NCBI RefSeq assembly: GCF_028641065.1
Contig: NC_073377.1
Coordinates: forward strand, 97,278,001-97,342,000
Reading direction: 5' to 3'
DNA length: 64,000 nucleotides
Source of the DNA: Leucoraja erinacea
Taxonomy: Eukaryota
Positions 238 to 55,230 of this stretch are shown here, piece by piece. The position numbers were made by a program, and so were the translations under genes. Positions within the stretch are counted from its first letter, which is position 1, and each line of letters opens with the position of its first letter. The notes under the pieces were generated by a model. The model was not told the origin of the DNA. It saw only the letters and a program-made list of their open reading frames with translations, and made no database searches.

Positions 238-418
238 TTAGCGGGTGCAGCAGCATCTATGGAGCAAAGGAAATAGGCAACGTTTCGGGCCGAAACCCTT
301 CTTCAGACCCGAAACGTTGCCTATTTCCTTCGCTCAATAGATGCTGCTGCCCCGCTGAGTTTCTCCAGCTTTTTTGTGTAACCTTCGATTCTCCAGCATC
401 TGCAGTTCCTTCTTAAAC
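238..418. mobile_element. Penelope pseudo-LTR insertion with inverted arms and a hammerhead motif
   Basis: About 50-bp inverted arms (239-289 / 308-358). Hammerhead core on the minus strand at 279-306. 11-bp direct repeat aagttgatcta at 227-237 and 419-429. Confidence 0.8.
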
Positions 419-1203
419 AAGTTGATCTACTTTCTGGTTTCAGAATGTTTATAAATCTCCCAATCACCAATAAACAGAGGGAATCATAAGGAATAAATTG
501 TGATTATAAAAAAATGTTCCTTTTTGATATAATTAAATTTGACAATGGACAGATACTTGTTGATATTTATTCTCTCAATTCTCCAGCTCCATGAAACTGT
601 TTGGCTCATATCTAATCTATGGGAATAAAAATACCCTTGAGATTATATTCTCGATACAGAAACAATCTTAAATTCATATTGAGGTTTTACTACAATGGAA
701 GAAAACATAAGCTATACATAAAAAATATCTTTGATTTACTTTGAATGCCAGTAACACAAAAACTCACAACTCACATTAATTGGGCAAATATTATAATGCA
801 TAATTTAAGATGAGCCCTTATCTAATTTTTATTAAGGCAGAAAAAAATGATTTTTTTTGTTTCAAATATATTAAATTCCTGCTTAATACACATTAAAGAG
901 ACTGGAACGATGACATAAACTGGCAGTAAACAAAAAATAATGTCATCAGGATTGATCACACAGGGGTTTAGTAGTAAACAATTGGTACGTGTGCAGCAAC
1001 TCAGGAAGACTGTTTCTTTCCAAATGTCATGAATTTTAAAAAGTTCATATAAAATCACAAATACAAACATCCCACTGCTCATATTAATCAATTGTTAATC
1101 TACCAAAGTCTTTGCATTTAAGACATGGATGGATAAAAGTGTCCTGTTTGATATACGGGGCAAGTTCAATGCATGCTGAAAGAGCACATTGAAGCAATCA
1201 GAA

Positions 1204-2584
1204 TCTATATTGCTAAAAGTCTGATCTTGACCACTTCCTGTTTTTCTGTTTCATGATTTTAGAAAAAACGCTGCCACACGGCTGTGATTTTTTGGCCATC
1301 TTACTCAAAGTCCCCCTCCACTGTGCAGGTCAAGAGGATGTTTCCCATCGATGAAAAACATTAAGAGTTATTAATGTTTAAAAAAAGTTGAGATTCTCTC
1401 TGCTGCCCCTGCTGGTGGGAGCGGGATGGACTATAAAACCCGGAAGTGTTGTGCCTCAGTCAGTCTCTGCAAGATGTGGGAAGTGAGAGGGTCCCGTCTC
1501 TCAGTCTGAGCTGTGAATAACACTGAACACATGTCTACTAAACTGTGAATGTGATTTTACTGACCTTGAGTGCCCTTAATGTGGTTTGAAAATAAAAATG
1601 TGGTTGGGTTGAAGTAAAAGCACTTCAAATGGTTGGTGGGGGTTTGGGTTGAAGTTGAAGCACTTCAAATGGTTGGTGGGGGTTTGGGTTGAAGTAAAAG
1701 CATTGCAAATGGTTATTGGGGGGTTGAAGTAAAAGCACTGTCTAAACTTGACAATATCCTGTTTGCGCTGTATATTGATTTTAGATAAAACGTTACCACT
1801 TATGGCTGTGATATTTGGCCATTTTTCTCAGTCCCCCTCTGCTCATCAGGTGCAGAGGATTCTTCCCATCAATGATAAATAAAAGTGTTATTAGTGTCTA
1901 AAAAAATGTTGAGAATCTCTCTCCTGTCAATCACGCCATGAAGGCCACACCTTTTCCGGTGGGAGGGGAGAGGGATTATAAAACCCGGAAGTGTGGGTGT
2001 GGCTCAGTCTCTGCATGCTGGGGGAGGGAGAGGTCACGACTCTGTCTGAGCTGTGAATTAACTGAACGCACTGAATGTCTACTGAACTGTGAGTGTGGTG
2101 TTTTGTGTGGTTTTATGGTGTTTTTATGGTGGTTCACCCTGCTTGAAATGGTATGAAACTGCATTTGAATGTGGTGGCCTTGCACCCTGCTGGAAATGGT
2201 ATGAACTGCACTTGAATGTGGTGGCCTTGCACCCTGCTTGGAGTGGCATGAAACTGCACTTGAATTCGGTGGCCTTGCACCCTGCTTGAAATGGAATCTC
2301 AAGGAATAGCCGTGAGTCAACTGCCAGCACACCAGCCGTGAGTGAGCTGCCAGCACCAGGCTTGAGGGACTGAGCTACCACCCCAAGAATCCATTTGGTC
2401 CACAATGTCCATACTAGCTCTCTGGAGACCAGTCCCTTCAGCCCACAACACCCATACCAGCGCTCCAGAAAGCCCCCCCCCCCACTGACCGCCAATATTG
2501 GAATTGGTGGAGAGGTGGAATATTGCGTTGGGGGACCAGCCCTCCTGTGTGATGCTGGGACCCAACGGGTCCCACTTAGTCTAG
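1204..2584 (+). mobile_element. Non-autonomous Helitron (copy 1)
   Basis: Starts A|TCTATATTGCTAAAAG. Ends with hairpin TGGGACCC-AAC-GGGTCCCA (2556-2574), then CTAG|T. No TSD. Duplicated 5' module; 40-bp and 48-bp tandem arrays. Confidence 0.85.
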
Positions 2585-3177
2585 TATGCTTTATAAGGAC
2601 CTGAATGCTGTGCACATAATTGGAAAGCAAGTGCGCTTACACTACAGTTACATTGTTCCAGTAAGGAATCCTCTTGAAATAGACTTTTCATTTGGACATT
2701 TCTTTGTATGAGAAGTGAATCAGTGAGAAAAAATAGTTAATTTAGGTTGGTGTTTCATTAGACATCATCCAAATTTTTTTTTTTTTTTTCTGTTTTTAGA
2801 TAACCAAAAGACAAAATACATGCAGTGTGCCCACAGGCTCTATTCTCGTTCATGCTGCTGACTTAATTTCACTGCAAAGATCATACCCTATTTATACCTC
2901 TTAATCAGTTTCAGTATTTCACTCACGGTGGAATCAAGACTGATAGGCTTGTGGTCGTCAGTGTTTGCTTTACCACCCTTTTTGTATGAAGCCAGACTCG
3001 CAAAATAGTGCTTACTAATGTGTCAGCTAGATGTTAGCAAAATCAGAGTCGTATGCAAATAAAGTGCTGAAGCAACATAGTTACAAGATTGGTTATTAAA
3101 AAAACAGGAGATTTGTGGTGAATGGCTGATTGCATAATGGATTGATGTGTATTGGGGTTACCATCAAAGGTTATTAA

Positions 3178-3579
3178 TAGGGTGATTTCACGAAAGGTCA
3201 CTGGATCATAGATCCTCACCCACGTGACCGCAAAATTGAACTGGGGTACAAACGCCACTTCCAGTACATGTTATTGATGCTAGAAACGCAAACTTTCACA
3301 CCCGTTAAAAACCGCGAAAACGGCCCATTTTTGAGCTGTAAATAACTGTGCCAGTTGGGGTGACCGCGAGGCACAGCTATCTTACTTTAGAGTCCAGAAG
3401 ATAAAGAAAAACGAAGGTAAAGACAAGAGAGAGCTGTAGGGAAAATAACAGCGGAAGTTGTTGGCCGTGCAGATATAAAGATCGAAAATATCGGGAATTA
3501 TCGCGTTTGCTCACTGCATTTCATCAAAACTAAGGCATTATTGATGTTTTGATGAAATGCAGTGAGCAAACGCGATAAT
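3178..3579 (+). mobile_element. THAP-domain DNA transposon relic (ISL2EU/Harbinger-like) ending in a fold-back
   Basis: Decayed frame xAHF*AVNNCASWGDREAQLSYFRV...RADIKIENIGNYRVCSLHF matches the THAP C2CH pattern. Perfect 34-bp inverted repeat at 3497-3530 / 3546-3579. Confidence 0.65.
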
Positions 3580-3889
3580 CACCAAGCCGCCACTGTGCAG
3601 GCTGCCTCACACACTCTGATATTCTCCATCTCAGCTCAGAAGATCTCCATCCAGATGGTTCAACCATTCAAATGCCAGTCTTCTGCTAATTTGGTCGATA
3701 CATCTCCAGGGCATGATCAGTATATCCAAAACGCTGTTGGATGAAAGACTAAATTGTATTTGCATCAGTGTTCAGCAGAAGACTGTCCAATGCTGTGCCT
3801 TTATTTAAAGGGCACAGCAAAGAAAAACGTGGCAAATATAGACCAGTAAGCCTGAATTCAGTAAGACAGAATCTAGAACTACAGAATCT

Positions 3890-4510
3890 ACACTTGGCCC
3901 TTTACCTCCCCCCTTGACTCCATCCAAGGACCAATCAGTCTTTCCAGGTGAGGCAGAGATTCATCTGCACCTCCTCCAACCTCATCTACTGCATCCGCTG
4001 ATCCAGCTGTCAATTTTTCTACATCGGTGAGACCAAGCACAGGCTCAGCGATCACTTCGCTGAACACCTCTGCTCAGTCCATCATAACCAACATGATCGC
4101 CCGGTTGCTCAGCACTTCAACTACCCCTCCCATTCTCACTCAGACCTTTCTGTCCTGGGCCTCGTCTATTGCCAGAGTGGGGCCCAGCGCAAATTGGAGG
4201 AACAGCATCTCATATTTTGCTTGGGTAGTTTACACCTCAGTGGTATGAACATTGATTTCACTAATTTTAGATAGCCCTTGCTTTTTCCCTCCTTCCCCTC
4301 CCCCTTCCCAATTCTCTCACGTCCTACTGTCTGCGCCTACTTCCTTTCTTTTTCCCCCAACCCCCAGCCCCGGCATCAGTCTGAAGAAGGGTCTCGACCC
4401 GAAATGTTGCCAACTTCTTCTCTCCATAGATGCTGCCTCACTTGCTGAGTTTCTCCAGCATTTTTGTCTACCTTCGATTTTTCCAGCATCTGTAATTCTT
4501 ACTTAAACAA
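3890..4510 (+). mobile_element. Penelope-like element 3' remnant (GIY-YIG endonuclease + pseudo-LTR)
   Basis: Translates to NLIYCIR...YIGETKHRLSDHFAEH...RKLEEQHLIFCLG...GMNIDFTNFR. Followed by a pyrimidine tract and a pLTR with CTGAAGAAGGGTCTCGACCCGAAA at 4381. Confidence 0.85.
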
Positions 4511-4554
4511 ATAATTAGGCGTAGATCTCTTGTGGGAGATTATGAATTTCATTG

Positions 4555-4706
4555 AATGTGTAGGAAAGAACTGCAGATGCTGGTTTAAATCGAAGGTAGA
4601 GTCCTCTTCTTCAGTCTGAAGAAGAGTCTCAACCTGAAACGTCACCCATTCCTTATCTCCAGAGATGCTGTGCCCCGCTGAGTTACTCCAGCATTTTGTG
4701 TCTACC
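4555..4706. mobile_element. Penelope pseudo-LTR fragment (rearranged)
   Basis: gaactgcagatgctgg followed by ctgaagaagagtctcaacctgaaacgtcacc...ccagcattttgtgtctacc, homologous to the other pLTR copies. Confidence 0.75.
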
Positions 4707-4719
4707 ATGAATTTAATTG

Positions 4720-5185
4720 TGTTTGTTTGAAGTAACAAAGAAGTAAGTTAGGGCAGGGCAGTAGACGTCGTCTCTATGGACATCAGCAAGGAATTTAATA
4801 AAATTCCAGATGGCAGGATACTCTGGAAGATTAGATTGTATAAATGCAAGTGAGAGTTAGCTAATTGGACACAGTTGATCACAAAATCGGATGGGGCACT
4901 CTGCAGGTCAGGCAGGCAGCATCTGTGGAGGGAATGGACAGATGACCTTTCAGATCTGGACCCTTCTACAAAGTAGATATGTAATTCTATACCTAATTAA
5001 CTTGATGGTTGAAAGCAGAGGGTAATGGTGGAATATTGTTTATTGGGCTGGAGGCCAATGACTAGTGGTGGGCTGCAGCGGTCAGTGCTGGGCCATTGGT
5101 GGTTTGTCATAGATGTGCATCTTGGTCGGCATGGATGAGTTGGGCTTAAGGGGCTTATTCCATGCTGAACAAGTCAATGACTCCA
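4720..5185 (+). mobile_element. Degraded CR1 LINE fragment (with small pLTR insert)
   Basis: gcagagggtaatggtgga...gtgctgggcca (QRV/SVLGP motifs) and CR1-type 3' end gggcttaaggggcttattccatgctg. Confidence 0.6.
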
Positions 5186-6178: not shown

Positions 6179-6507
6179 TACAATTTAACATATTGATAAT
6201 TGCTAATTATTCACAATGAAACATTCTGGCATAGAAAATTAGCTATTGCATATGTTGGATCTCATTCCTTCAAAGTAATTTAAATAGATTTTAATATATT
6301 TCGAATTCAACTTTAAAATAGTTTTACTTTTTCATTGTTTTCCTCCCTCCTTTATTCCATCTACCTTGACATCTTCTGCGTCCCTTTTTTTGGATTTCAT
6401 TTAACACTGGGTACATACAACATTCTTTTTTTTTAATATTGCAAATTTCATCCATTACTGAGACATCATATTGGTACGCATGTTCACCTACATTGCCCCA
6501 TTCACTT

Positions 6508-6645
6508 GTGTTTAAGAGGGAACTGCAGATGCTGGAGAATCGAAGGTTACACAAAAAAGCTGGAGAAACTCAGCGGGTGCAGCAGCATCTATGGAGCGAA
6601 GGAAATAGGCAACGTTTCGGGCCGAAACCCTTCTTCAGACTGATC
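6508..6645 (-). mobile_element. Penelope pseudo-LTR with hammerhead motif
   Basis: Near-identical to 238-418. Minus-strand CTGAAGAAGGGTTTCGGCCCGAAACGTT at 6611-6638. Confidence 0.8.
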
Positions 6646-6785
6646 GGGGGCGGGGGTGGGTGGGGACAAGAAAGGGAATAGGAGGAGTCAGCGACTACGT
6701 TGACAAATGGTTTGTTGAATGGAATGGCTCCGTTTGGAATAGATGCCGTTTCAAATCATGTTATAGAAAGTCTGAAACATGATCT

Positions 6786-7072: not shown

Positions 7073-7612
7073 CATCTATATCCATTGCTTCTCTCAGGAT
7101 GTGCAATTTCTTCTGTCGTTCTTTTATCCTTTCATAAACACCCGAGAGAGCAGATGAGATGGAAAGTTCAGAAGTATGATGAGATCTTTGAAGACCGAGT
7201 GAGGCTGCTACTTGCCCCAAGTCTGGGTGCTTTCTCTCTCCGATTTGGGGGGTGTTTTTAATCTGCCTGCCTATCCCATGCGGACAAAAATTACGATGAT
7301 GAGAACTATCTCCAGGTGCTATTATTTTTCTGTTGTAACAGTCCAGGTCGACTGTGGAGGTCCAGGGCTTCTTACTGCCATGATCACAAATGTAATTGGA
7401 CTTCCTTCGCAAACCGTGAGATCGAGATTGTAACTTTTGGCGTACTTCCCTTGTATCTTCATGTCCAGAAGCCGTATGATAAGACTCCAAATCTGATGCC
7501 CTATCAGTAATTGCTAAAAAGCCCATAGATTTGCTAAGTCCTTTATTTAGTGAGGCCTGCTCACTGAATTGTGCTTTGTATTTTGCTGCTACACTGGGAG
7601 CTGGACTTCTTC
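7073..7612 (-). CDS. PTPN13: PTPN13 coding exon (linker; exon 7 equivalent), 540 nt
   Basis: ttaatattacag|GAAGAAG...ATAGATG|gtaagc, open throughout. Contains LNKGLSKSMGFL, KKPWTSTVDL and ERIKERQKKLHILREAM, which are PTPN13-like blocks. Phase 1-1 matches the preceding exon. Confidence 0.92.
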
Positions 7613-9123
7613 CTGTAATATTAACAGACAAAGAAATTACATCAATATAATCCATGCACAACTGAACATATAACATGTTTCCCTGGCAAAGATAAACACC
7701 TGTGAATGTTAGCTATCTGATATGCAAATAGAAAATGTTTAAAGTATGTAGCATTTATAATAAATCGTTCTAAATGTTAATTTATTTTCCTTTCAGATGA
7801 TAGTTTTTCACTAAAGTATGCCTACCATTGTCCAGCATAATTTTCTTTACTAGATTCGCAGTAGGAGTAAAAGCAAAGCGAGCAGGACATACTGCTGTTG
7901 TAGAACAGTGAGTTCCATGTGCATACACAGCAAATTGATATAAAGAACATGGAGGTAATATTTTGCAGTCATGGGGAGCAAGTGGAATGTGCAATGTTAG
8001 TGTTTGTATTCATGGTGCTGCTGGGCATACTGTACACTTGATGTGATGTTGTCCATGCTACCATTGCAACTGCATAAGCTTCAGAACATTGATATTTCAC
8101 TGAAATCTCCAGCATTCAAACAGATTAAGGATGTAAACGCTGTTCATCTCAATTAAAAAAATATATATACATTTAGGGCTTTTTATTTGAGTCTTTTCTG
8201 GCAAACGTCCTTTCAGAGACTGAAAATTAACCTCATCAAAACATGGAGTTCCCTTCATTACAATTTTAATTTGAAGAGATTTTTATATAAAGGTACAATA
8301 TTATTCTGTCCGCCCCATATTGCAACTTTTCTTTGTCTAATTTAGTCTTCTCTCACATTGTTTAACTTACTGTATAATTTTACATTGAATGAAGTACTCT
8401 AATTGAGACTTCCCAACAGGCACAACTAGTATGTTTTATTATGATTGGTTGGAAACATATGCTTCCCCTATTTGTGTAGATCCCAGATGCCTTATGACGA
8501 GTGTATGAATAAAAATGTCCCCTAATATTTCTGGGGCAGCTCCAACTATAAATTCTGCTGATCACAATATCTGACCCAATGCAAGGGACATGAAAGACAA
8601 ACATTTCTTTCAAAAATCTGTTCTCATTCTATTGAATTTAACAATCACAATAAAACTGACAATTTACCTGCATAAAGAATAAACGGTTCTGTACATAAAT
8701 ATGGTTCTGCACAAAAAATATCTAGTAATCTACGGAACACTTTATGGTAGCGGCTTTGGGGCAATTTCCCTGGCAATGCTCCAGAGATGGAAAAGACAGA
8801 ATTTGATGCGTGTCTGATACACAAACTCAATTCATGCCAACAGTGACCAGTTCAATCTATGGGAATGATATGAATCAAGTTACAAATAGATATTATCATA
8901 ATTCATTCCATGGTAGATACTGTGCATGTGATCCCACACCTAGACAATGTCCTTCCGAGCATCTTTTGTCATATATTTTGTCTATCCCCACACCTAAACT
9001 AATGGAGATTAAAGAAGCTTAAGGTCAGCGTCTACGGACTGTGAATACAATCACCAATATTGCACATAGCATTCAGCCCCATTGGCTGCACAATATTATC
9101 TCCATGTTCTTATCCATCAATTA

Positions 9124-9430: not shown

Positions 9431-12400
9431 AATTTGCTGGGCATAGGTTTGCAGAGCAAACTTTGTAAGTATAGAATTTTTCAGAAGAGCTCTTAAAAAC
9501 TAAATCTCCATACCCAATTATTTTCTAAATGAGTAACTCACTTATAACATTGACTATGACTAATCTTTATCAGGGTTGCCATATGGTTTGTGATCCATAT
9601 TGTACAACTGCTGATTAATTGGAGGTTGAAAGAAAGCTTGGGCCACGAGGCAACACAAACTGTTTTGGCTGTCAAAGCATCATCAAAAACGCTGAATGTT
9701 TCTGACATTCAAAACAACTAAATGACTTGAAATATCATGAAGACATTAAAATGTTTATAAAGCCAAATTTTTGAATAATTAAGTAATTAAAAAAAATAAA
9801 AACCTAGATGACCAAATATTTACCCTGATCCCTCAGCTATTTAACCTCTATTGAAAGCAATGGAAATGCAGTCTCTACACTGGGTTCTGATGAGGATCCA
9901 TAAACTTAAATATTATATCCTTTTCTCTTTCCACAGATGCTGCCTGGGTTGCGAAGTGCTTTTAACAATGTTACTTTTATTTAATTTTCCTATGATTGTT
10001 ACCCCCTCCCCATTGCAGCTCCCATGACAGCTGCAAACAGCTGACTGCACATTTATGGTATCCAAATTTACACACAAATCCAAAAGTTGATTACAGTTAT
10101 TCAGTGAATTATTGACAATTACACAGGCAGATACTGACATTTGCTGCTGACGTCTCAACCTACAATTCTCAACCACCTTCATTATAGTGGAATAGCTGAT
10201 AGGTTTGGCCAGCAGTAACCTTACCCGACAGCTTATTAGCACGGGCAGCCACTCAAATCTGATGGGAAATCTTAATTGTGGCCCTGCCTGCTCCTTATGC
10301 ATGACATCATTTCATACAGTTTTTAACTTTGTTTTCCAATAAACTCTGCCAAGAGATATCTTTTTCTACAGCTGTGTTTAAGATAAATATCTAAAAACAG
10401 GTTCAACAGCAAAAAAAAAAACACATTAAAAATGAATGTATTGTTTTCAGTGTATCTGCAAAACAGCAATTTACAAGTGGCACAACAAACTACCATTTCT
10501 TGAAAATATATCATAAAATTACAATTAACTACATTTGACCAATTAAAGTCTTGTCAATAATATTGGGTTCATTGAAATGCATTCGTCATTCGCACACGAA
10601 GATTGTCATATTGCTCCATATTTCTGCTTAGATTGACACAGTTCAAATCCAGCCTCGTGTTTGTGTTTGAACTCGGGTTACAATCCATAAACGGGATCTG
10701 CACCATTTTGGGAGGCAGCTCATTTTCACTCAAGTTCCTTGTGTACAAGTATGAGCTGCGTCACGGCCTCACACCACCAGAGAATATTTGGCATTTCATC
10801 ACCATGTGAAAGTTGTTAATTAGATTAAAAGCAACACAGCAAGCAGGTACAGGCGAGTTTAAAAGGAGCCTGGGAGACTGAACCTCAGCAAATTTATGGA
10901 TACATTTGGTTTAAACAAAGGGCTGAGAAAGGCCAAGTAGTTCCCCAGGGCAAGTTAAACAGAAAATAATCATACAGCAATTGTACTTTAAGTGCAGTAT
11001 ACTTGTTGTGTTAGTTGAGTTAATTTAACAAATAAAGGTTTGGCAGGATAGCTTCAATTCATGGAATGCACTTCCGGCAACTCGTGGAAACTGTAGGCTG
11101 TTCCCATGTCCCGGTCAACCGCAGTGTGAGAGGTTTTATCAGCTGGAGAAGCTTGAGCTCCGTGTATCTGGACCTTGGGCAACAGCTGATATTTCACTGG
11201 CTTATTCCATAGCACGTATCCGGAGTTGGTCACCTCACAACTCAGAACAGTGCAGGCAGGGCCAGCCTTAGGAGGTGTGGGGCCCAATTGGGAAAAATTT
11301 TCATAGAAATATAAAGAAATAATTATAAATGAGTCACGTGTCATGAGTAATATGACAGTCAGTCGGCTTTAAAAAAAATCTTAAATCGCGCATGCGCAGA
11401 TTATTCTCTCCGTAAAAATAAAAATAAAAATAAATAAAGTAACAATTCAATTTTCCCACGGCTTCCAAATCTCCTTCTTTCTAAATGGGTGGGGGATGGA
11501 GGGTGACGGCAGGTGGAAAGATGGTGGGAAAAACGGGAGCACACCGGGACAAGTTGAATCAGTTGTCATCTTAATGAATGACAATACTAGTTCAACTTAT
11601 CAAGGGACCAGTCCGGGGGAGAGTTCCTTTCACAACGTGTGGGGTGTTGCGGGGTAAAATTGCGGGGAAGGCAGGAGCATTGAGAAGGAGGTGGTCTGGT
11701 TCATGCCAGTAACTCACTCACTCACCGCTGCCGCGGGGCTCCGGGCGCGGAGCTACCGCGTCGTGGCTGGGGAGGGAAGCAGCTCGCGTGGCTACGAGCG
11801 GCCTCCATCACTGGACAGCGGAACCGACTGCCATCTCAGCGCCTTCTGCCAGTCCGCTCACCTCTGGCAGTGCTCTCCGTCTGAACAGTGAGGGGACTAG
11901 CTCAAGAGCAAAGATCATAGAGTGGAGTGGGTCAGCGGGTGATGGATAACCTCACAACGGGTGGTGGTGCTTACTCCTGTGTCACCGCGAACTTGATGTT
12001 ACTCGCACTGACATATGGAGTAAGCTCCACCGCCCGCTGTCCTGTTATCCATCGCCTGCTGACCCGCTCTTGAGCTGGATGATTCCCGGACAACCCCCTC
12101 CTTCTCAACGTTCCTGCCCTCCCCTCAACTTTACCCCTGGACAGACTACCCACATGCTCTGAAAGGAACTCCCCCCCCCAGCAGCGCTGTCCTTTTACAG
12201 CCGCTTCCCACTTTAGAGCCGCAAGATAATATCTTGTCCAAACTCAGTTGTATCTTTCTATCTCAAGAAATATCACAAAATATGCCATTGTTTCAGCCAC
12301 ATTATGACAATATATAGAATGTAGGCTATTTGTTATCAGTCACCCCATCCCAGAAACAACAGAACTTAAAGAAGAACATTTGTTTTACTAATTTACGAGC

Positions 12401-13795: not shown

Positions 13796-14079
13796 ACCTT
13801 GATGTTCGTGCATTTAGTACCGGGTATGCTTGAAACAATTTATTGTAATGTACTGTATCTTAAAAAAAAACTATATCAACCAGGTGTGAAAATTACACTG
13901 AATCGAACGATGATTGAAAAGCATGGGAATCGACTAATCATCATCCTGCTGCAAAATTTTTTAGTCGAAAGTTGTATTTTATTTCAAAGTGGGAATTTGG
14001 AGATCGGGACAGAGATGCTACACGGAGATTTTAAACTCGGGAGAGCTCTTGGGTGAACTCGCACAGTGGGACAGGGCTT

Positions 14080-14222
14080 GAGGCAGCATCTATGGAGCAA
14101 AGGAAATAGCTAAAGTTTCGGGCCAGGTCTGAGGAAGGGTTTTGACCCAAAACGTTGCATATTTCCTTTGCTCCACAGATGCTGCCTCACCCGCTAAGTT
14201 TCTCCAGCATTTTTGTCTACCG
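14080..14222. mobile_element. Penelope pseudo-LTR with inverted arms
   Basis: gaggcagcatctatggagcaaaggaaata ... atttcctttgctccacagatgctgcctc inverted pair around ctgaggaagggttttgacccaaaacgtt. Confidence 0.75.
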
Positions 14223-15971: not shown

Positions 15972-16899
15972 GACATACACAGACACAGACAGACACACAC
16001 ACACAGGGTTAAATCCCACCCGTACCCTGGCCTGGACATTAACCCCGACACCAATGTTAACACACTCAAACCTCCAACCTGGTTTTGCTGTTGTACCGGC
16101 ACCAAACGAGTTAACACAACCCCCAGATCTGTTTATCCACAGATTGTCTCCCTCTTGCACTTATCCGGCCTGTTGTCTTTCGTTTCTGCTTCAGGTCTTT
16201 TAACTCTATCCCCCCCCCGACCAAGAGTGGGCCAGTGGGCCAGTATTTTTTTTACATCTTTATTTAACAAAGTGAATTTGTATTTCCATATGAAATACGG
16301 AAAATTAACACGGGGCCCCCCTTGGGCGCGGGGCCCAATTTGGAAAAATCGGTCTAATCGGCCTAAGGCTGGCCCTGAGTGCAGGCAGTCAGAATAGAGG
16401 TGGTGGGTAATTCATAAGATCTTGGTGGGCATTTTGCTCTCCAACCAGTAAACCATTGTAAGTGCTGGTGTGGGTGGTGACGCCTAGCAGAGGATAGCCA
16501 CAAACACAAAGTACTGGAGTAACTCAGCACTTGTTACTTTTTGGTTCAGACTAGCATCTGCAGTTCCTTCTTACAAACTTTGTTTTGCATGTTGCTCAGG
16601 CAAATCATGGGGGGATGCTTTCTGTAGTGCATTTGTAGCAATTGGTAAGGGTTGATAGAAATATGCCAAATTTCCTTAGTCTTCTGAGGAGGTAGAGAAG
16701 TTGTTGTGCTTTGATGGACATAATGTTAATGTGATCGGTCAGGACAAATTGTCAGTGATATTTATGCACAGGAATTTGAAGATCTTGATCATCTCCGATG
16801 CAGCCTGGGGTATATATTCCACACTGCTTCCTGAAGTTATTAACAACCTCCTTAATTTTGCTGAACCTGAGGGAGAGATTGTTCTTTTGATACCATGTC

Positions 16900-19525: not shown

Positions 19526-20971
19526 CTGAAATGTGACAGATGTACAGAGCAAGTTTAAACATTTCAGTAATAAAGTTCAGCAAGCTGCAGACAAAATTAA
19601 CCATGTGGGATTACAATGTTATGGCAACAACAAATAGCTAGTGTAATGAAAGGGTCGGAATAAATTTAAAATACGTGTGGATACAAGGATTCCTGGGAAG
19701 AAAGGGAAGGGAAGAAAGGAGGGGGAGTGGCAATGCTGATTAAGGAAAATAGACCATTGCGTTGCTTCTGTTGCCTGGATGTATTCCCAGGAACCAGAGC
19801 TCTAACCAAAATGTGCAAAGAGGGTTCATTATCACATTATACACAGGGAATATGTTACTGACAGGCTGCTGAGTTGAGACTGCTACAATCTCCTGACTTC
19901 CACGCTGCTGCATGCTGCGGTGCTGGGAACTAGGCACACATCTCTGTCCACATTTAGCACTAACACAGCAATGAATTGCCCATGAGGTTCTCATTGGGTG
20001 GACAGAGGTGACTGGTGTCTTCCCTCAGCCCTGAGATATAGTACTCGGATATAATCGGCAAGATGAATGCAGGCCATTGCTGGGGATTAGCTTCATGTGT
20101 CCGGTCTCTCTTCAGCTCCTGCCGGATGCAACACAGTTTGCTGAATTCCCCTCTCCTTGTTTGTCTGCATATCTCTCCATAAAGCCAAACAGGCTCTAGC
20201 TATCCTGACATAGCTTTATGATTAAATAAAATAGAGGGCCATAAGGTAAACATAGTTGATGTGGCAAAATGTATTTCCAAGCAGCATCTGATAAAATGCT
20301 AACAATAGGCAAGATCAAGCTTAATGGAATAAAAGGGGCTGAGCAGAATGCACAGAATTTTGGCTCAGTAACAGGAAACAGAGCTACAGTGCAAGGATGG
20401 GCTGATAGGATGTGGAGAAATCTCCTAAACGTCAGGACTAGAACTCAGGAGGTACAAGAGACTGCAAATAATGGGATCTGGAGTACTGGTTCCCCATTTC
20501 CTCAGCACATTGTTCCACTGTTACATTCCCCTTCCCACTTTGTTCTGTCTGCCTATCACCCACACGCTCTACGCACTAGGCCCCTATACCATTCCCCGCA
20601 TGCCGCCACACCACTGTTCCCATCGGCCCAGCACTTCCCCCCTTTCTGGTTTCAAACATCACCGTAATTTCTTCTCATAACCTGCAGAACCCTGTTGTCT
20701 CCACTCATCACCACTGTGGCTCTCTCTATCCCTCCTTTCTCTCACCGGGCTCCATCTGCCCAGCAATATTTGCTCATCTGGATCCACTAGCACTTGCCAG
20801 CTCCTGCCTCATCTTTCCCTTCACCTCCTTATACTGGCCATCTCCCCTTTACACTTGCAGTCTTGTTGCAGGATCTCAACCTGAAGCATCAACCATTGCT
20901 TGGCCTCCACAGATGCCATTGTGTTTGTCATTTTGTTTTTAGGGCTGAAAATATTACTTTTCTTTAATATA

Positions 20972-27652: not shown

Positions 27653-27659
27653 TAACATA

Positions 27660-33700: not shown

Positions 33701-33835
33701 AGGAGGCGATGGTTGAGGTGGTTAAAATACGGAACATTTTTACATCTGTATTTGCACCAACACATTTTCAACAAGGTCAAGGAATTTTAATATCGAAATA
33801 TATAAAATAATGGGATTTCACAATCAAGTACTTAC

Positions 33836-34021: not shown

Positions 34022-34289
34022 CTAAAAAATAGAAAACCAAAATATCACAGTTGCATTTACAAATAATGTTCAGTTGAAATCTAAAGAATGTTAGTTGAAC
34101 AGAACATGAATTTCATGCATGTTACTTCACTGCCAGAAACATTTTGGTAAAAGGGAATGAACACTTCTAATTAGAAAAATATGCAGAGACAATTTTATAA
34201 CAATGAATTATCAAAGAATAACAACTCAACAAAAACAACATTCTTTTTATGATGCCTGTACGTGAACTTCTTGGAGTATTGGGAATAAT

Positions 34290-35900
34290 CACTGTATCTG
34301 ACATCAATCTCCAACATTTCCGCCACCTTCAATGTGATCCCACCACCCGTCACATCTTCCCATCCCCAACCCTGTCCGCTTTCCACAGAGTACCCACCCT
34401 CCACAACTCCTTGGTTCTTTTATCTCTTCCTACCCAAACTGGCCCCATCCCAGGTACTTTCCCTGAAACCACAGGTGTAGTACCTGTAACTATACTTCCT
34501 CCCTCACATCCATACAGTGAGCTCAGCAACCCTGTTGGGGTGGGAGATTGCAACCTTCACGTCGTCCGCCCTGTTTCCATGAATGCAATCAACCTGGCAT
34601 GCACAATCAAAGAAGTTTTGGTCTCCTAATTTGAGGAAGAACATCCTTGTGATTGAGGCAGTGCAGCGTAGGTTCACGAGATTGATCCCGGGGATGGCGG
34701 GACTGTCATATGAGGAAAGATTGAAAAGACTAGGCTTGTATTCACTGGAGTTTAGAAGGATGAGGGGGATCTTATAGAAACATATAAAATTATAAAACGA
34801 CTGGACAAGCTAGATGCAGGAAAAATGTTCCCAATGTTGGGCGAGTCGAGAACCAGGGGCCAAAGTCTTAGAATAAAGGGGAGATCATTTAAGACTGGGG
34901 TGAGAAAAAACTTTTTCACCCAGAGAGTTGTGAATTTATGGAATTCCCTGCCACAGAGGGCAGTGGAGGCCAAATCACTGGATGGATTTAAGAGAGAATT
35001 AGATAGAGCTTTAGGGGCTAGTGGAGTCAAGGGATATGGGGACAAGGCAGGCACGGGTTATTGATACGGGACGATCAGCCATGATCACAATGAATGTCGG
35101 TGCTGGCTCAAAGGGCTGAATGGCCTCCTCCTGCACCTATTTTCTATGTTTCTATGTTTCTAAGATAGAACAAGTTGCCCTACAACTTTAGGCTGTGCAC
35201 GCCACACGCAAGAAGAAGCAACTGGTGTGACAGAGGTTCACGTTCACCTTCTCTAATCTATCTACTGCATTTGATTCTACCAATGCGGCCTCCTTTACAT
35301 CTGCGAGAACAAGCGTTTCACCGAACACTTGCGCTTGGTCGCCAAGGACTGCTAGATCTCCCGGTTGCTAACTATTTAATTCCCCTTTCTATCTCCAAGC
35401 AATTCAGCCCTGGGCTTCCTTCATTGCCAGTGAGAGACCACACCCAAACTGGATGGGAAAGCACCTCATATTCCGCTTGGGTAGCTTTCAACCTAACAAC
35501 ATGAACACTGAATTCTCCAGTTTTAGGTAACTAACCAACAAATACCCCTCCCCTTTCCCCCCCTCTCTTCCCTGTGCCTCACCTGCGTACACACCCATTT
35601 CTCCCCAAATGCCCCCCCACACTTTTCCTTTTCACCATCCCCTTCCACTATATCTCTTCCTCTATTTCATATTTCATTAATTTTCTCTCCTTATCTTACA
35701 GCCTTTTTTCTTATCGTTTTCTGCAAATCAAACCACCCTGTATCTACTGATCACTTGACAGGCTTTTAGCCTCTTTTCCAGCTTTCTCCCCCCCCCACCC
35801 CCACTAGAATCAGTCTGATGAAGGGTGCCAACTTGTAAAGTCATTTAACCATGCTCTCCGGACAGTCTGCAAGACCTGCTGAGTTACTCCAGCACTTGGT
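34290..35900 (+). mobile_element. Penelope remnant with nested insertions
   Basis: LQHFRHLQCDPTTRHIFPSP, then NLIYCI (GIY-YIG) after the insert, and a pLTR (cagtctgatgaaggg at 35811). Confidence 0.75.
34615..35162 (+). mobile_element. CR1 LINE 3' fragment (young)
   Basis: [20 protein letters not shown]...FFTQRVVNLWNSLPQ; tail (tctatgtt)n. Confidence 0.92.
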
Positions 35901-36754
35901 ATCATTGTTTAAATAAATAATTACATGGTCCCTAAACTTGCATTGCAGGTGTTAAAGGGTTGGTTATATATTTTTTGTAATTTTCCAAGCAATTCTCGAC
36001 TACCCTTTGAACTTATTACGTGAATTTCAATTATGTGAATCTGATGCCGATATCATAGCCTTAATCACAAGCTGCATAACAAAAAGGCATATTACACAAC
36101 TTCATGAATAGATGCTAGCAGGAAACATACTCAAATTAAATGGAATCGAACACAGTTATTTAGTATGCGTCTCTTTAGCATGGGAGCCAGAATCCATGAC
36201 TCCAAAAGAAAGATCATGAAAAGTAGCCACAAGGGAATATGGTTTAAAACAAGAGAATTCTGAACATATGTCATATCCAATTAATTTGTTGAATCAATTT
36301 AAGCTTAAATATATTATTTCAATAGTGATTCAAATCAAATCTTTTTAGTGAGCTAAAAATTCTTGCCAGGAGCCCACTTACTCCTTGAGGAGCCTGTAGG
36401 CTAAAGTAGAAGCGAGAACTGATTTGTTGCAGTGCCTTTACATTGCACGTGAGGCAGGAGTACCTCTGCCCTGTGTAGCAAGTTTCCCAGCTTGCCATCT
36501 GACCACTATCCATGATCAGATCTTCCCTTCCCTCAGGAGACCAAAACCGTATACCTGCACTACCCTCACTGCTCCCTCTTCCACATACTCCCAAACACTA
36601 CTGCTAAGCCAGTTTCAGGCTTTCTACCAGCTCCTGAGCTACTAGAATGTTCCTCATCAGATACGTGGCCAAGCCTGTCAAGCAAGCTGGATACTGAGTG
36701 GGGAACCTGCTGAAGAAAACAAATTTTAAGATATTGCAGTGCGCAGGACCAAAA

Positions 36755-42250: not shown

Positions 42251-43683
42251 TGTTTAATGGATTTCACAATACGGATGTCATAAAACAATCTAAAAACTGA
42301 GAATGGCAGAAATTTGAAATTGTAACATGAAATGCTGAAACCACTCAGCAGGTTGGAATCTGTGGGAAAAAAACATTTCAGTTCAAAACACTTTGTTGGG
42401 ACTCAGAAAGAGAGAAAATAAGTTTTAAGTTGCAGAGGATAGGGTAAGAGATGGATTCAAGAAAAGGAATCTCCCTGGTCAGGTGTCACTGGAGTTACCT
42501 TGGTGATGAGCTGTTGATGATGCCATCTGGTTGATAAGTTAATAAGTTACTTTAATATTCTTTTGCACAACTTGGACTTTGCAGTACACTCCTGCACCAT
42601 TGTTTACATTTAGTAATTATATTTATTGTTGCTTTTAATCATTACTCTATGTCTGCACTTTAGGAGCTTAATGTGATCAGGGAATTTCATTGCATCCCAG
42701 TGTATATGACAATAAAATAAAATGAATTTAAATCTAATGCAGAAAGTTAGAGAGAGAAGAAAAACATAGAAACACGGTGGGGGGAGGGGGTTTTGGTGAA
42801 GGTGATGACTGTTTAATACGTGGTGATGGTTGATATTGGATCAGACTGATCCTGGTGGAGGTAAAAGTGGTAGTTGAGCGGAAAAACCACGTGAACTATA
42901 AATAGTTAAGAATGGAACTGGTGTTAAAGTGTCACAATCTGGAATTTCCGGAGAAGGGCTTTATAATTAAAGCAATCCCTCACTATATTTCTTCATTTTT
43001 TATGAGGTTACCAGCAGCATAAAATAATTTAAACCATCCAAAATGATTGTAGAGCTAGAACCATATCAATTTAGCAAAAGTATCTCAAAAAACTATATTG
43101 ACATTCTGACATTATGTCAAAAGAAATTTGTAAAGGACTTTTTCCAAAGCAGCAAACCATTATTTAAAATACAGGTAATTTTTAAAGTCATCTGTTCATT
43201 GTTAATGAACATTAGCAGATGCCAACATGTAAAAAATTCAAAGTAGCTGTAAGGAAATACAAATGTCCATATTTATATTGGTCAACAGGGTATTAATAAG
43301 TGGATCAAAATTATAGACTGTTTTGTTTTTCCTTGTATCCACATTGGAATTAAAACCATTCACACAAAATCACTGGCAAATAGTTAGTAATTCCAGTGAC
43401 ATAGTTGGGTAGGACCGTGTTACAAAAGAGCAGTTCTGATCCATTCAGTTGTTGTTAGAATTAAACTTATCTGCCTCATTACAAAGATCAGTATCAACCA
43501 TATACTTCTTTATACTTACAGCGTAATTACATGTTGACACCCTTTGCATTATTGCACAGAAAATAATCAGTTATACCATTGTGTCTAAGTTAAGTTGGTT
43601 TCAAGTAAAATATATGCAACACAACTGGAAGGTATAGTATAATTGTGACATTACAAAACTAAGGTAGATGCAGTGGTGTAGCA

Positions 43684-44490: not shown

Positions 44491-46139
44491 ACAATGTTTC
44501 ACCAAGAAAAATACAGGATAAAATACAAATGCACCACTGCTCGATAATTTTGGTGTTGCTGACTGAAGGGACAGATGCATGGGACACAGTAACAATGAAT
44601 ATTAGCTGAGTACCCATTATGAACAGGCCGATGCTGCTTAAATGGCTCAAACGGGATTCATGGTCAAGGAGAAGTTGACATGAGGAATCAGCATTGTTGG
44701 TGTCTGGTGCGAAGTTGGTAGAGGCCGCTGGAACATTGCTTCCCTCACCGAAGGTTTTATAGTTAATTAAGGAATTAAAATGAAGAATAGATGCAAACAG
44801 GAATCAACAGATTCAACAGATAATTTCCTGAAATGTCAGGTCTGTGATTTGAAATAAATGAAAATCAAATTAAACTGCAGATGCTGAGTCAGGAATAAAC
44901 ATTGAAAATGCTGGGAATATTTAATGGGTCAAGCAGCATTTGTGGAGAGAGGTTGTTGAAGAGTCCTAGACCTGAAACTTTAACTGTTTCTCTATTCATT
45001 GATGGATGCTGCTTGGTTTGCAGAGTGTTTGCAACTTTTTATGCCTATTTATTTGAATAGGCTAAGCTACTAATCTCTCATTTAGAAGAATGAGCGATAA
45101 TATAATTGAAATATACAGAATCCTTAACACAACACGGCAGACTCTATGTGGGAAGGATGTTCCATCCGCCAGTAGAGTCAAGAACTAGGGATACAGTCTT
45201 CAAATAAGGTGGAGGGCATTTAAGACTAAAATAAGGAGATATTTCTTCCTTTAAATAATGGTCAATCTTTGCCAATTTTATGTCACATGTATGTCAAGGG
45301 CCTGTTTGTTTCTTTATCCTTTAAGTCTACCTAGACTTTCTATTTCACGTACACCAAAGTCTCCACAATGATGATGGAAATTACTTCTGCCTCCATTGAA
45401 AATGTGTGAATATTCTAAAACATTTCTCTTCAGCTTCAACTTCATTGGTATATTTTGTTCTCACATTCTACTATTCCCTTTGCTAGATTCTTTCACATCT
45501 GCAGTTAATGCTTTCTCCTGGTCTATTATTGTCCCTGACTGCACTTATAACACTTTTCCACAAGTTCCTCCTTTTAACTCCACACCTTCATAACAAGGAA
45601 AACAAAACCAACATGACTAGCAGCCTTCACTGCCTTGTTGCAAACTCAACTATGATTACTGCCAGTCTTAATATTGTTTATTTCTGCACTGATCTGTCAA
45701 ATTACACTTTGGGCAAAATAAAGTAGACCATGGCCATTGGTTCTGAAGAACACCATCAGCATTCAGCAAGCCCCAGGTGAGCAAGCACCAGGCTCAAAGT
45801 TCAAGTGACAGGTGCTAACACATTGAGTTCAACAATGTCATGAACCATCAATCTCCAGCCCACACCCCCCCAGCCCAGCCATAAACATGGAGGCCACATT
45901 GATTCCAATGAGAATTGCCAGACCTGCAGATTGGATGGGTATAGGTTTGTTCAGATCTTATTATTGACAGCTATAGCAGATGGCAAACCTCCGCTCTAGA
46001 CTGTGTAGTATATTTATTCTGGGAACAGGGTCTCAGCAGTACACATCTAAAGCCAATGATGTGCACAGGCTTCACGAGACACCCATAGGGGATGGATAAA
46101 ACAAGTTCGGGAACCAGGGATATCAGCTTATTTATAATA

Positions 46140-46266
46140 AAAAGGAACTGAAGATGCTTGTTTATATCTAGGATGGACACAAAATGCTGGAGTAACTCAG
46201 TGGGTCAAGCAGCATCCTTGGAGAAAATGGATAGGTGATGTTTCGGGTCAGGTCCCTTCCTCAGCC
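46140..46266 (-). mobile_element. Penelope pseudo-LTR with hammerhead motif
   Basis: Reverse complement CTGAGGAAGGGACCTGACCCGAAACATC. Confidence 0.7.
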
Positions 46267-47524
46267 TACTTATGTTGGGAAGACAATGGTGAGACCCAGC
46301 AAATACATGGCCAAGAAAGATGAGGCTCGTTATCTATTACCAACAATAATTGCTTCTAGCACAACACTACACATCTCTGTCTGTAACACAGCTATGCATG
46401 GATGAAAGATTGCAACCTGCATATTAAAGAATCCCCTAGACCTCTCATAATTCATCCTCTGCACATTGCAAGAGTGTGAATAACTCTTAACTACATAATC
46501 CAACAAACTCTCCAGTTAATCCTTAGCGCTTTGATTAAACTGGAAGAGGATGACACTGTACAGATTACCTGACATCAACTTTAACATGCACATAGAATAA
46601 TATCTCAGAGATGTTGTGTCAGTCTTCTCCGTCTGAATTCCTGGGTGATCCTGCTCCATGTAAGGGGACCGGCAATGCAGCAGGTGACACAATGATATAT
46701 AGGCAGCATGCAGTAACCCCTAGGCAACCTCAGTATTGACTTCAGACCCTATAAATGTTTTCATGACATCAAGTCAAACATGGCCAAGGGGATCTCTCCC
46801 GGAAAACCAACTATCCTCCTCCCTTGGATGGTGAATGTGTGCACTTTCATGTTGAGCAACATTTGCAAGAAGCACTAAAAGTAGCAGATGCACAGAATTT
46901 ACTCCGGGTGGGAGAACTGCCATGCCTATCACCAAAGATACCTTGATAAAACCATGGTTGACTGAACTGCTTTAGTCCTGAAGACTGAAACTGCCAGAAT
47001 GCAGATGAGAGAAATAACATAAACAGCAATAGAGACACAAGGAACTGGAGACGCTGGAATCTTAAGCAAAATACAAAGTGCCTGAGCAACTCAGTGGGTC
47101 AGGCAACTTCTGTGGAGGAAATGAACGTGACACTTTGAGTCAGAACCTTTCCTCATGAAGGGCAAAACTGACTGATTGGCTGTGCACCAGCGAATAAATG
47201 GATTAATGGCACCCTTTCATTTCTCTGCCACTGGTTATTGTAACATTGGCTGTAACCTTGAAAGTAATTCTAAGCTACTTTCCCAATATATAAATTTCAC
47301 CCTTCAAGCAAAAATCAATCAAGCCTCAAGATATCTTTTGGGTATTCATCCTTCTTTCTGATTTGTTATCTGATATTATAATGTCTATTTGACAAGTTCC
47401 TTGGAACATTTTTGATATACTAAAAACATTAAATGGTGCTAGCTCTTTTCTTCCCTTACAATTTGTTTTTTTTAGTTCATTTAGCATCACATTATTCTCA
47501 ATGTACTCAAATCTCTACACATGA

Positions 47525-50492: not shown

Positions 50493-50500
<8 letters not shown>

Positions 50501-52836: not shown

Positions 52837-52902
52837 CTGGTTAAGAGGTATTTTGTAATCGGCTCCCCAGTACAATGTCATACCAAGTGAGTACACATGC
52901 AT
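52837..52902 (-). CDS. PTPN13: PTPN13 coding exon (KIND domain; exon 4 equivalent), 66 nt
   Basis: tttttgtacttgcag|ATGCAT...AACCAG|gtgagt. Encodes MHVYSLGMTLYWGADYKIPLNQ (KIND motif YSLGMTLYWGADY). Phase 0-0, in frame with its neighbours. Confidence 0.95.
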
Positions 52903-53929
52903 CTGCAAGTACAAAAACCCCAGATCAAAGTTTACTAAATTATTATTATTTTATACTTCAGGAGTAAAAGTTATATTTTGCGAGCAAATAAATATTCAAG
53001 CATTCAGAATACACTGCTCTTCTTAGAATTTATTTCAACAATTTTTTTCAACCGATTTATATTCCCCAAATAAAAAGAGAAACATGTTGTAACAAAAGGC
53101 CCACAAAATACATGTCTGCTTTGCCATTTTGAACCACAACTATGAATTAATTACTTCAATGACTGCAAATAATAATGTAAAAAAAAGATTTTGAGCAGAA
53201 TTGATTTTCACGAAACATCTATTAAATATTATTTATAATATATTAACATGAATGAATTTCCAGTGAAGCATCTTGAATTGACACAATGTGAAACAACTAG
53301 GTAACATGTAGATTGCATTTTCTCGAATTTTTTCTGCAATTTTTTTACAAATTACAGTTAAAATAGTTACAAGTGTGGGAATCAGCAGTAAACCCAAGTA
53401 CCCTTGGAAATATCAGTAGAATTGCTTAAATGTGATGGTTAGGACTGCAGATTTTGTTCAACATCTTATTGCTGATTTTTTTTGTACACAATCTGTTCTT
53501 GCTGCAGCTAACAACATTGCAGTAATCCAATCCACAATGATATAACTAATAATATTTAAGGTGTGAAATTTCTGATTGTGGGCTGAATCATGCAGGATGT
53601 GGCCAGTGCATCTGTCATTCTGCTCCATCACCGGACTCCAGATGTGATCCAAAGATGGAGCCTTGTCTTACTTGGATTCCTCCGCGTTACATTGGAGAAT
53701 CTGTTCCTCCTAGACCTGGAATAGGAATAGAGGTGCTTTCCTTTTTCCAAGAGCTTTTCCTAGGGATTTTTTGTTTTGTTTTACATTTTATCATTTTAAT
53801 TTTGTCTTCATGATTAACATTTCATTTTTTTGTTTTTGTTTACAGCATTGTTGTGTTTTTAAATGTCACTGATTATGGGAGATGTTTAAAAGCTTTCAAC
53901 AAAACCTCTTGGGTTTTTACAATGGACAA

Positions 53930-54362
53930 AATTGACAGGACTTGATTAACTGAGCTAAAGGAGGGGTTGCACAGGCTGGGACTGTATTCCTTGGAGAGTT
54001 GGAGGATGAGAGATGCTCTCATAGAGATCACAAGGGGAATTGATGTGGTAGAAGCACCGAGTATTTTACCCAGCATTGGGGAATCAAGAACCAGAGGACA
54101 TATTATAGTTTTAAGGTGAGAGAGGAAAGATTTGATAGGAAACTGAGGGGCAACTTTATCACTGATAAATGGTGAGTATATGGAATGAGCAGCCAAGGAG
54201 ATAGTTGAGGCAGAAACTATAACATTTAAAAGACATTTAGACAGGAACATGGATAGGAAAGGTTTAGAGGGAAATGGGTCAAACGTAGGCAAGTAAAACA
54301 AGTGTAGATGTGGCACCTTGGTCGGCATGGCAAGCTGTATGCTGTATGCTGTATAACTCGAT
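53930..54362 (+). mobile_element. CR1 LINE 3' fragment (old)
   Basis: ggactgtattccttggag...agaaccagaggacat...CR1 3' UTR. Confidence 0.75.
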
Positions 54363-55039
54363 GATCTGCAATTTTACATCCTGTCAAAGCTGTCAGGGCA
54401 TTGCAGGAGTAGACTATCTGCAGGAGCCTATTGAAGGTCTATCCACTGCTAACGTATCACCAGATGACTCCCACTTAATCACTCTCCCATCCATCCAAGC
54501 AAGTGAAGCTATGTGGGGGCCTGAGGTGTAAATCAGATCGAGGACTTTTCAGTTCACCTTGGGGATGGCTTAGACATGAATGAGCACATTATTTACGCAC
54601 ACCCAGGCATTGGGTTGAATGCTATGCAGCCTAATGTTCGGAGAATCTCTTCCTCTGACTCTTTTGCATATTTCAGTCTTCAGACTTTGACCTTGTATCT
54701 AACCTTTCCATTTTCACCCCAACTCCACTGGTAGTCTATAGCAACAACGGCCACTCTTGGGAAAGCCCTCTCTAGATCCTTCAACTTCCTATATTGTTGA
54801 AGAATCTTTGCATTTTTTGATTATATATCCTGTAATTCCTTTCAGAGCTTAGTCTATTCTGTTAACTGATACATTTCCGTGCTTTATTGCTATATTTATT
54901 GTTTAAAAAACACTTGAATATGGAAATTTATCAACAGGTAAGAAAAATTAGTTTGGTTTAAACGTGTGCTCTGAAAGGGCTAGAGGAAGCACATCTTATT
55001 CCTCCAAGTGTATATGGGAAAAATAACCATCTGACCCCC

Positions 55040-55230
55040 CCTCCTGCCAAAATCCACCTGTTACTTGCCGTGCTTTGTCCTTCCTTTTCCCTCTTCTAGC
55101 TTTCTTCCCCCCCCCCCCCCCCCCCCCCCCACAATCAGTCTGAAGAAGGATCTCAATCCGAAACGTCACCTATCCATGTTGTCCAGAGATGCTGCTTGTC
55201 CTGCTAAGTTACTCCAGCAGTTTGTATCCT
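55040..55230 (+). mobile_element. Penelope pseudo-LTR with intact hammerhead motif
   Basis: Poly-C, then atcagtCTGAAGAAGGATCTCAATCCGAAACGTCacc at 55140-55167. Confidence 0.8.

Follow-up and report, generated by a model that had tools for sequence, protein, structure and literature searches.

Hammerhead motifs in PTPN13 introns of Leucoraja erinacea as probable 3' ends of a Penelope-like element family

Introduction

Minimal hammerhead ribozymes are known from Xena, Poseidon and Neptune elements of fish, coelacanth and Xenopus, mostly as single dispersed copies, and those described by Cervera 2014 did not cleave as monomers and cleaved at a low level as dimers (PMC4209133). In PAc, a Poseidon element of Anolis, the hammerhead needs protein and is dispensable for insertion in vitro, and no RNA-seq ends were seen at its site (Frangieh 2024, PMC11167929). 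Craig 2021 gives heavy 5'-truncation, inverted arms and a tail of 30-40 bp as hallmarks of Penelope-like elements, and a CX2-5CxxC linker between reverse transcriptase (RT) and endonuclease as the mark of Neptune and Nematis; the role of the hammerhead in these elements is described there as unclear (PMC8557442). Here we analysed 64,000 nucleotides of Leucoraja erinacea (contig NC_073377.1, positions 97,278,001 to 97,342,000), referred to below as the window, in which a sequence-only reading had noticed eight hammerhead-like motifs dispersed through introns of the gene PTPN13. All counts of loci, arms and tandem-repeat rows refer to this 64-kb window. We put the probability at roughly 0.8 that the motifs are the hammerhead-bearing 3' ends, or pseudo-long terminal repeats (pLTRs), of one Penelope-like family, likely Neptune, whose 5'-truncated and often inverted complementary DNA (cDNA) copies decay without a host role.

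Results

All eight motifs were recovered at the coordinates and on the strands at which they had been noticed. The search pattern CTGANGAN-G-N10-C-GAAA-NN-T-H gave seven matches with at most one mismatch (five exact) against 0.01 expected from 100 shuffles, and the motif at 35815 was reached only with two mismatches. A single repeat family of about 190 nt houses all eight, as traced by self-BLAST and by a hidden Markov model (HMM) and a covariance model (CM) built from the copies. The family comprises 22 arms at 17 loci, five of them head-to-head (inverted); nine loci, more decayed, come in addition to the eight first noticed. Three weak HMM/CM rows (42841-42870, 4597-4625 and 44777-44824) were excluded from the arm count, and the reversed-sequence control gave no match to the family. 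Exact-pattern scans for further copies in metagenome, viral and genome contig collections found none.

The case for one family of element ends is carried by 3' ends that the copies share, 5' ends that vary, remnants of a GIY-YIG nuclease in two copies, target-site duplications (TSDs) at two loci and CpG-type damage to the stems. The 3' ends are of two kinds, a short end and an end about 35 nt farther (tailed copies, with tails of 30-40 nt). Three RNA runs, chosen by species label and placed on the stretch 3881-7240 (56,559-68,145 placed reads each, mostly derived from other genomic copies), mark the tailed end as a boundary whose flanks are mixed, with 2115 loose ends at 4557 and an agreement of 0.35. 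TSDs are clear at 2 of the 11 loci searched, with one further weak 7-bp case: the insertion at 238..418 is flanked by an 11-bp TSD (227-237 and 419-429), and the insertion at 4557..4706 by a TSD of about 13 bp with one mismatch (4542 and 4707). The copies, together with the coding remnant that adjoins one of them (an open reading frame, ORF, compared with the reference protein P0001), are as follows.

238..418, unstranded: head-to-head pLTR insertion; intact hammerhead 279-306 in the minus arm; plus arm 308-418, from stem II to the tail end
3883..4274, plus: broken linker and GIY-YIG end of a Neptune-type element (tblastn with P0001, E 3.5e-41, 61% identity)
4275..4511, plus: pLTR of the ORF-bearing copy, with an 83% pyrimidine tract, hammerhead 4381-4408 (stem III AUGU), a downstream block and a tail of about 35 nt
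4557..4706, unstranded: separate insertion with an inverted tail 4557-4600 (minus), a short fold-back, hammerhead 4616-4643 (plus) and the short 3' end
4898..4970, minus: decayed pLTR fragment, 5' core gone
6506..6691, minus: young tailed pLTR, 97-99% identical to the 279/308 arms, with intact hammerhead 6611-6638
9920..9957, plus: short pLTR fragment that starts 3' of the cut site
14079..14221, unstranded: inverted pLTR insertion with hammerhead 14129-14156 (plus), G12 mutated (AAAA)
16504..16529, minus: short pLTR fragment
20858..20916, plus: old pLTR copy with a divergent core
23985..24133, unstranded: old inverted pLTR insertion, arms 24095-minus (tailed) and 24104-plus
26753..26827, plus: old pLTR fragment
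34288..35906, plus: old Neptune-type copy with thumb/linker and GIY-YIG remnants, pyrimidine tract and degenerate hammerhead 35815-35842
42323..42393, minus: old pLTR fragment
44873..45048, unstranded: old inverted pLTR insertion
46132..46267, minus: tailed pLTR that starts at the hammerhead edge, with damaged hammerhead 46237-46264
47041..47155, minus: old tailed pLTR copy with a damaged core
55077..55233, plus (antisense to PTPN13): pLTR with intact hammerhead 55140-55167, carrying a G-C to A-T double change

The inverted insertions at 238-380 and 14079-14190 form near-perfect hairpins of 50-60 bp in the PTPN13 precursor mRNA (pre-mRNA), at -99 and -72 kcal/mol; from these folds they are possible substrates of ADAR or Dicer.

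The likely identity of the element was read from its coding remnants. Directly upstream of pLTR 4381, positions 3933-4274 account for the P0001 match at E 3.5e-41; the remnant has a frameshift near 3930, an in-frame stop at 3999-4001 and its own stop at 4272-4274. A more decayed GIY-YIG remnant (35260-35530, E 3e-9) lies directly upstream of 35815, and a thumb/linker remnant (34288-34517) matches P0001 177-254 by tblastn, this old copy being interrupted by another repeat at about 34614-35167. P0001 itself reached 20.9 bits against the Pfam GIY-YIG model (E 4.6e-4), under the cut-off of 22.6, and a Pfam search with the window's own GIY-YIG pieces of 90 and 27 aa gave no match. The linker before the GIY-YIG domain is intact in P0001 (CX4CX2C), and at 34.47-34.50 kb its CxxC half survives, with a stop at the position of the first Cys. 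The best named protein match to the nuclease is from Mobula hypostoma (63% identity). As had been noticed, solo pLTRs outnumber ORF-bearing copies, with an ORF at only 2 of the 17 loci; the motifs at 4381 and 35815 are not solo. Read depth is about 10-20x higher on the pLTR than on GIY-YIG, a rough ratio given the divergence of the reference ORF. Together, the ORF-poor loci and the depth ratio are a truncation gradient, and a separate family is unnecessary.

Splice-like sites accompany the element. In the 35815 copy, a donor-like AG|GTAACT (35521-35535) overlaps the stop of the ORF, a pyrimidine tract of 100-280 nt separates the donor-like site from the CAG adjoining stem I (35808-35814; 4375-4380; 6635-6645), and a second acceptor-like pyrimidine-YAG precedes ATGCTG 3' of the cut site (6583-6600). 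By analogy with Penelope of D. virilis, in which the intron terminates at helix I (PMC4209133), these sites are possibly the element's own intron; splicing to the second acceptor-like site would remove the hammerhead. No joint from the ORF-stop donor to the acceptor-like sites was among the 15 joints listed out of 2358. Exonised pLTR peptides were also considered and rejected: the protein search gave two unnamed proteins, both of which read through the pyrimidine tract, with no splicing support.

The motif agrees with the consensus of the minimal hammerheads in Fig S3 of Cervera 2014 (NNN CUGANGAH G..C GAAAN palindrome UH NNN; PMC4209133), also in its additional nucleotide before G10.1 and in the palindromic CG, and its description as a minimal type-I hammerhead in Penelope-like pLTRs, in which A9 is followed by an extra nucleotide and stem III is palindromic, was upheld. 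Among the 44 matches at E<=10 in an Rfam covariance-model scan of the window there was no hammerhead family, and the top miRNA matches are inverted-repeat hairpins. Core, 4-bp stem II and self-complementary stem III are all retained in four of the eight motifs (279, 4381, 6611 and 55140). The motif at 6611 combines an intact core with a 4-bp stem II, an ACGU palindrome, a GUU triplet and a 2-bp stem I, the one at 4616-4643 has a damaged stem II, and the one at 46237 has lost the palindrome (stem III ACAU) and has 3 bp in stem II and none contiguous in stem I. The length of 2-4 bp given for stem I is right for seven of the eight (2 bp in five, 3 bp at 35815, 4 bp at 279, where it was created by the inversion junction) and wrong for 46237. 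Similarly, the stem II sequences listed apply to 279 and 6611, to 4381 and to 55140, and differ from what we read in the other four: GAGT-CTCA-ACCT at 4616, GGGT-TTTG-ACCC at 14129, GGGA-CCTG-ACCC at 46237 and GGGT-GCCA-ACTT at 35815. In older copies at 20858-20885, 24104-24133 and 26745-26770 the core is CUGAUGC-A instead of CUGAAGA-A, which suggests from the sequence a subfamily, perhaps a variant, perhaps a dead lineage.

The core is better conserved than the neighbouring pLTR. In the eight named copies, 2 of 88 cells at 11 core positions depart from the majority versus 65 of 395 downstream, a comparison biased by the choice of these copies for their core. A fairer test used 14 copies and the GAAA+U16.1 half only, leaving out 279 and 308, which nearly duplicate 6611; mismatches were 5/70 versus 143/588 downstream (p=7e-4), and 3/35 versus 81/282 (p=0.008) in the seven copies that the sequence-only reading had not named. 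This half-core conservation can be read as constraint in the master lineage, common to other pLTR blocks. At C11.1-G12 the 14 copies have CG (4), TG (8) or CA (2), and judged by the substitutions, the damage within single copies is of CpG type in stems II and III.

Stem II covariation, which had also been claimed, is not significant. At 55140 the double change from G-C to A-T is genuine but the only one, and chance would give 1.1, reckoned from the 4 G>A and 10 C>T changes found among 36 cells. The covariation score was matched or exceeded by 47 of 500 shuffles, so that both tests stay at chance level and the claim lacks support. Of the stem II cells, 81% are paired, and the same pair elsewhere shows uncompensated A-C, G-T and G-A. 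Beside stems I and II the pLTR has a further candidate helix, AGATGCTG/CAGCATCT. A helix of 8-10 bp (AGAUGCUG with CAGCAUCU), which encloses the short 3' end, was predicted in five of the seven tailed copies folded, including these sites:

6520-6592, minus: predicted AGAUGCUG/CAGCAUCU helix
4426-4493, plus: predicted AGAUGCUG/CAGCAUCU helix
23994-24062, minus: predicted AGAUGCUG/CAGCAUCU helix
46151-46218, minus: predicted AGAUGCUG/CAGCAUCU helix

The fold makes it a candidate structure for the start of reverse transcription, comparable to the PAc stem-loop.

The host gene was confirmed as PTPN13 on the minus strand, and the copies sit inside its introns, as had been proposed. The ORF at 7044-7712 (minus) matches PTPN13 proteins (best E 5e-28), and tblastn placed five exons between 56570 and 7074.

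56388..56570, minus: PTPN13 coding exon (KIND-domain region)
52837..52905, minus: PTPN13 coding exon
33833..34021, minus: PTPN13 coding exon (N-terminal KIND-domain region)
31947..32036, minus: PTPN13 coding exon
7074..7616, minus: PTPN13 coding exon with a GTAAG donor behind it, the last one detected in the window

No PTPN13 exon was detected in the window downstream of 7074, and given the GTAAG donor the copies from 279 to 6611 would thus lie within the next intron. The motifs at 279, 6611 and 46237 are, as noticed before, in the sense of the gene; among single-arm loci, six are sense and six antisense.

In the RNA runs the sole pile-up of read begins or ends was one of 8 molecules at 6688. 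An antisense read excess of 2.4-14-fold (the two single-cell runs X22 and X23; 3881-4776 and 6457-6680) was not accepted as a sign of cleavage or selection, since internal oligo-dT priming suffices to produce it; strand in X22 and X23 was assigned from the few reads that fall on exons and introns of PTPN13. The unrelated repeat at 6793-6904 is likewise strand-biased, 8-10-fold.

Other repeats occur in the window. At 58441-58670, inverted arms of 93 nt (92% complementary) flank a 44-nt spacer with short tandem repeats, resembling a miniature inverted-repeat transposable element. Opposite-strand copies of a repeat with internal tandem units of 31, 40 and 48 nt lie at about 1200-2580 and 17750-19100. 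Remnants of long interspersed nuclear elements (LINEs) with endonuclease, RT and ALKBH8_N-like C-terminal domains are present at 39538-42056, 37891-38439 and 47728-48219, and an integrase core remnant of a retrotransposon with long terminal repeats (rve, E 5e-5) at 60345-60989. The 3'-end copies of another LINE-like repeat, which we take to be CR1-like, lie at 26841-28009, 34614-35167, 43659-44270 and 56969-57273 and have no Pfam match; since one of them interrupts the Neptune copy at 34.3-35.9 kb, this insertion is the younger. An assembly gap of 391 N at 15.7-16.1 kb is flanked by microsatellite-rich stretches.

Discussion

According to the explanation that we favour, the element would have been pasted into the PTPN13 introns as 5'-truncated, often inverted cDNA copies, and these would decay without a job in the host transcript. 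The hammerhead would be kept by selection in an active master element, where cutting of a tandem precursor RNA would need a dimer and probably also the bound element protein, as reported for anole PAc. Copies that contain the core together with what follows the cut site would have to stem from an uncleaved or re-ligated template.

Several observations weigh against this explanation. The window holds no RT core, no full-length element was recovered, and the assignment to Neptune, which we consider likely, was made from remnants with a linker shared with Nematis. The best 5-column windows downstream are nearly as conserved as the half-core (7.5% versus 7.1% mismatch), thus the ribozyme is not alone in being constrained. 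The lack of a pile-up of read begins or ends at the cut sites in the three RNA runs, which would fit the explanation, comes from a weak test that needs a fifth of the local depth and uses libraries that miss 5'-OH ends. Finally, 14 of the 21 arms begin inside the hammerhead or at its edge, a pattern that plain random truncation does not account for.

The last point leads to the alternative that survives best, which we nevertheless regard as unlikely: a non-autonomous unit of about 130-190 nt, from the 5' edge of the hammerhead to the tail, would be copied by the Neptune machinery, or a folded or protein-bound hammerhead would stop and fold back reverse transcription, so that the ribozyme sets the 5' boundary without cutting. 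Measured from core C3 and with a tail-only arm excluded, 8 of the 21 arms begin at -4..+2 and 6 at +6..+19, three begin past the cut site and four well upstream, and none begins at the cut site itself (+29). The binomial probability of 8 of 21 ends in 7 of 124 positions is p=1e-5, or 0.005 if only 5 are counted, and four of the five inverted loci have an arm that starts at most 4 nt from the 5' edge of the core. The few loci with an ORF and the depth excess on the pLTR also suit such a unit. The flank upstream of this edge carries an acceptor-like CAG after a tract of 75-83% pyrimidine, and the hammerhead could tentatively be seen as a boundary more than a nuclease, where its fold, or a protein or splicing complex at the CAG, halts and folds back reverse transcription. 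Against this, the upstream tract is low-complexity and hypervariable, and local alignments of old copies stop there artefactually, which can mimic edge clustering; at 279, 4616 and 14129 the inversion junctions are young and not open to this artefact. Many RNA reads run into the pyrimidine tract (1850 in run X24 at 4611), four loci clearly extend upstream, the numbers are small, and strong 5'-truncation is normal for Penelope-like elements (PMC8557442). The accessible part of Craig 2021, the sole paper that matched on truncated or inverted pLTRs with a hammerhead, does not give the placement of junctions relative to the ribozyme (PMC8557442). If true, the boundary role would spawn a very abundant hammerhead-to-tail mini-element of about 130-190 nt along with long inverted hairpins in introns, and would for the first time give the Penelope hammerhead a concrete part in how insertions are shaped.

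We consider it very improbable that the gene-sense copies self-cleave PTPN13 introns and affect processing of the pre-mRNA, as the sequence-only reading had proposed for 279, 6611 and 46237. Two of the four intact motifs, 279 and 6611, are in gene sense, family RNA is abundant enough (0.44% of the reads of run X24 on the 3.4-kb test stretch) for trans partners to exist, and amniotes have domesticated intronic hammerheads (PMC6155905). Yet on the gene-sense strand 279 is sequestered by a fold-back of -99.2 kcal/mol, 46237 lacks the stem III palindrome and the proximal stem I, and 6611, the only plausibly competent PTPN13-sense copy, with core, stem II and palindrome intact, has a 2-bp stem I and no competent neighbour. 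For all eight copies in context, the predicted pairing probability is at most 0.33 for stem II and 0.0 for stem I, and the dimer hammerhead lies 14-52 kcal/mol above the co-fold minimum in 8 of 8, in nearest-neighbour models that leave out tertiary contacts and protein help. Cleavage of published minimal hammerheads is absent as monomers and low as dimers (PMC4209133), and PAc requires protein (PMC11167929). Furthermore, orientation is unbiased (6:6) and read ends do not pile up at the cut sites; the orientation and the CpG decay argue against a domesticated intronic hammerhead. The copies are probably relics in decay, by which host RNA would seldom be cut, and for PTPN13 itself they are likely irrelevant.

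More improbable still is a non-LTR retrozyme, i.e., tandem hammerhead repeats yielding circular RNAs: the motif is of type I, and animal retrozymes derive from pLTRs and are present in one chondrichthyan sampled (Li et al. 2026), but no pLTR copy falls in any of the 30 tandem-repeat rows, so that the defining feature is missing in the window, 4381 and 4616 are separate insertions, the latter with its own TSD, the motif is minimal and not canonical, and TSDs, tails and ORF remnants indicate direct copying of element ends. The retrozyme-like non-autonomous family proposed earlier is likewise not supported, as an excess of short copies is what 5'-truncation would yield, and no back-joint at the cut site was among the 15 joints listed out of 2358 for the RNA runs.

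The favoured family of Penelope-like element ends closely resembles the minimal hammerheads of Cervera 2014 in its CUGANGA core, extra nucleotide before G10.1, G10.1-C11.1 pair and GAAA, in the loopless palindromic CG stem III, UH cut site and pyrimidine-rich 5' flank, and in the mostly solitary dispersed copies of truncated elements with some opposite-strand pairs. It differs in a 4-bp stem II and a 2-bp stem I (G-C plus U-A/U-G), at the short end of the published range; the Drosophila and Culex rows of Fig S3 also have a 2-bp stem I, and no cartilaginous fish is found among the chordate rows examined in that figure (PMC4209133). With the Neptune clade it shares the C-terminal GIY-YIG, the preceding cysteine linker, 5'-truncation, inverted arms and the 30-40-bp tail, whereas the skate copies in the window are known from broken 3' remnants that lack the RT core (PMC8557442). 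Like PAc, it has two 3' ends a tail apart, target sites rich in AT, a hammerhead cut site free of RNA-seq ends and uncleaved RNA as the probable template; PAc belongs to another clade, and the skate family is known from sequence alone (PMC11167929).

More distant systems share the type-I hammerhead. Animal non-LTR retrozymes are also non-coding and pLTR-related, but they are tandem repeats of 150-450 bp with mostly canonical hammerheads, unlike the dispersed, single or inverted copies with TSDs described here (PMC7229834; Li 2026). The ultraconserved amniote hammerheads of RECK and CTCL also lie in host introns, yet they are single-copy, conserved and canonical, whereas the copies of this family are multicopy, decaying, minimal and strand-unbiased (PMC6155905). 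The literature listings examined on Penelope, Neptune and hammerheads in sharks and elasmobranchs show no description of this family's ribozyme. Hammerhead-bearing Penelope elements are well known as a kind, and this family is a new member, adding a likely cartilaginous-fish case that is very dense (17 loci in 64 kb) and has one of the shortest stem I/II architectures. A genome-wide set of its copies would be strong data on selection on the core and on the 5'-boundary role.

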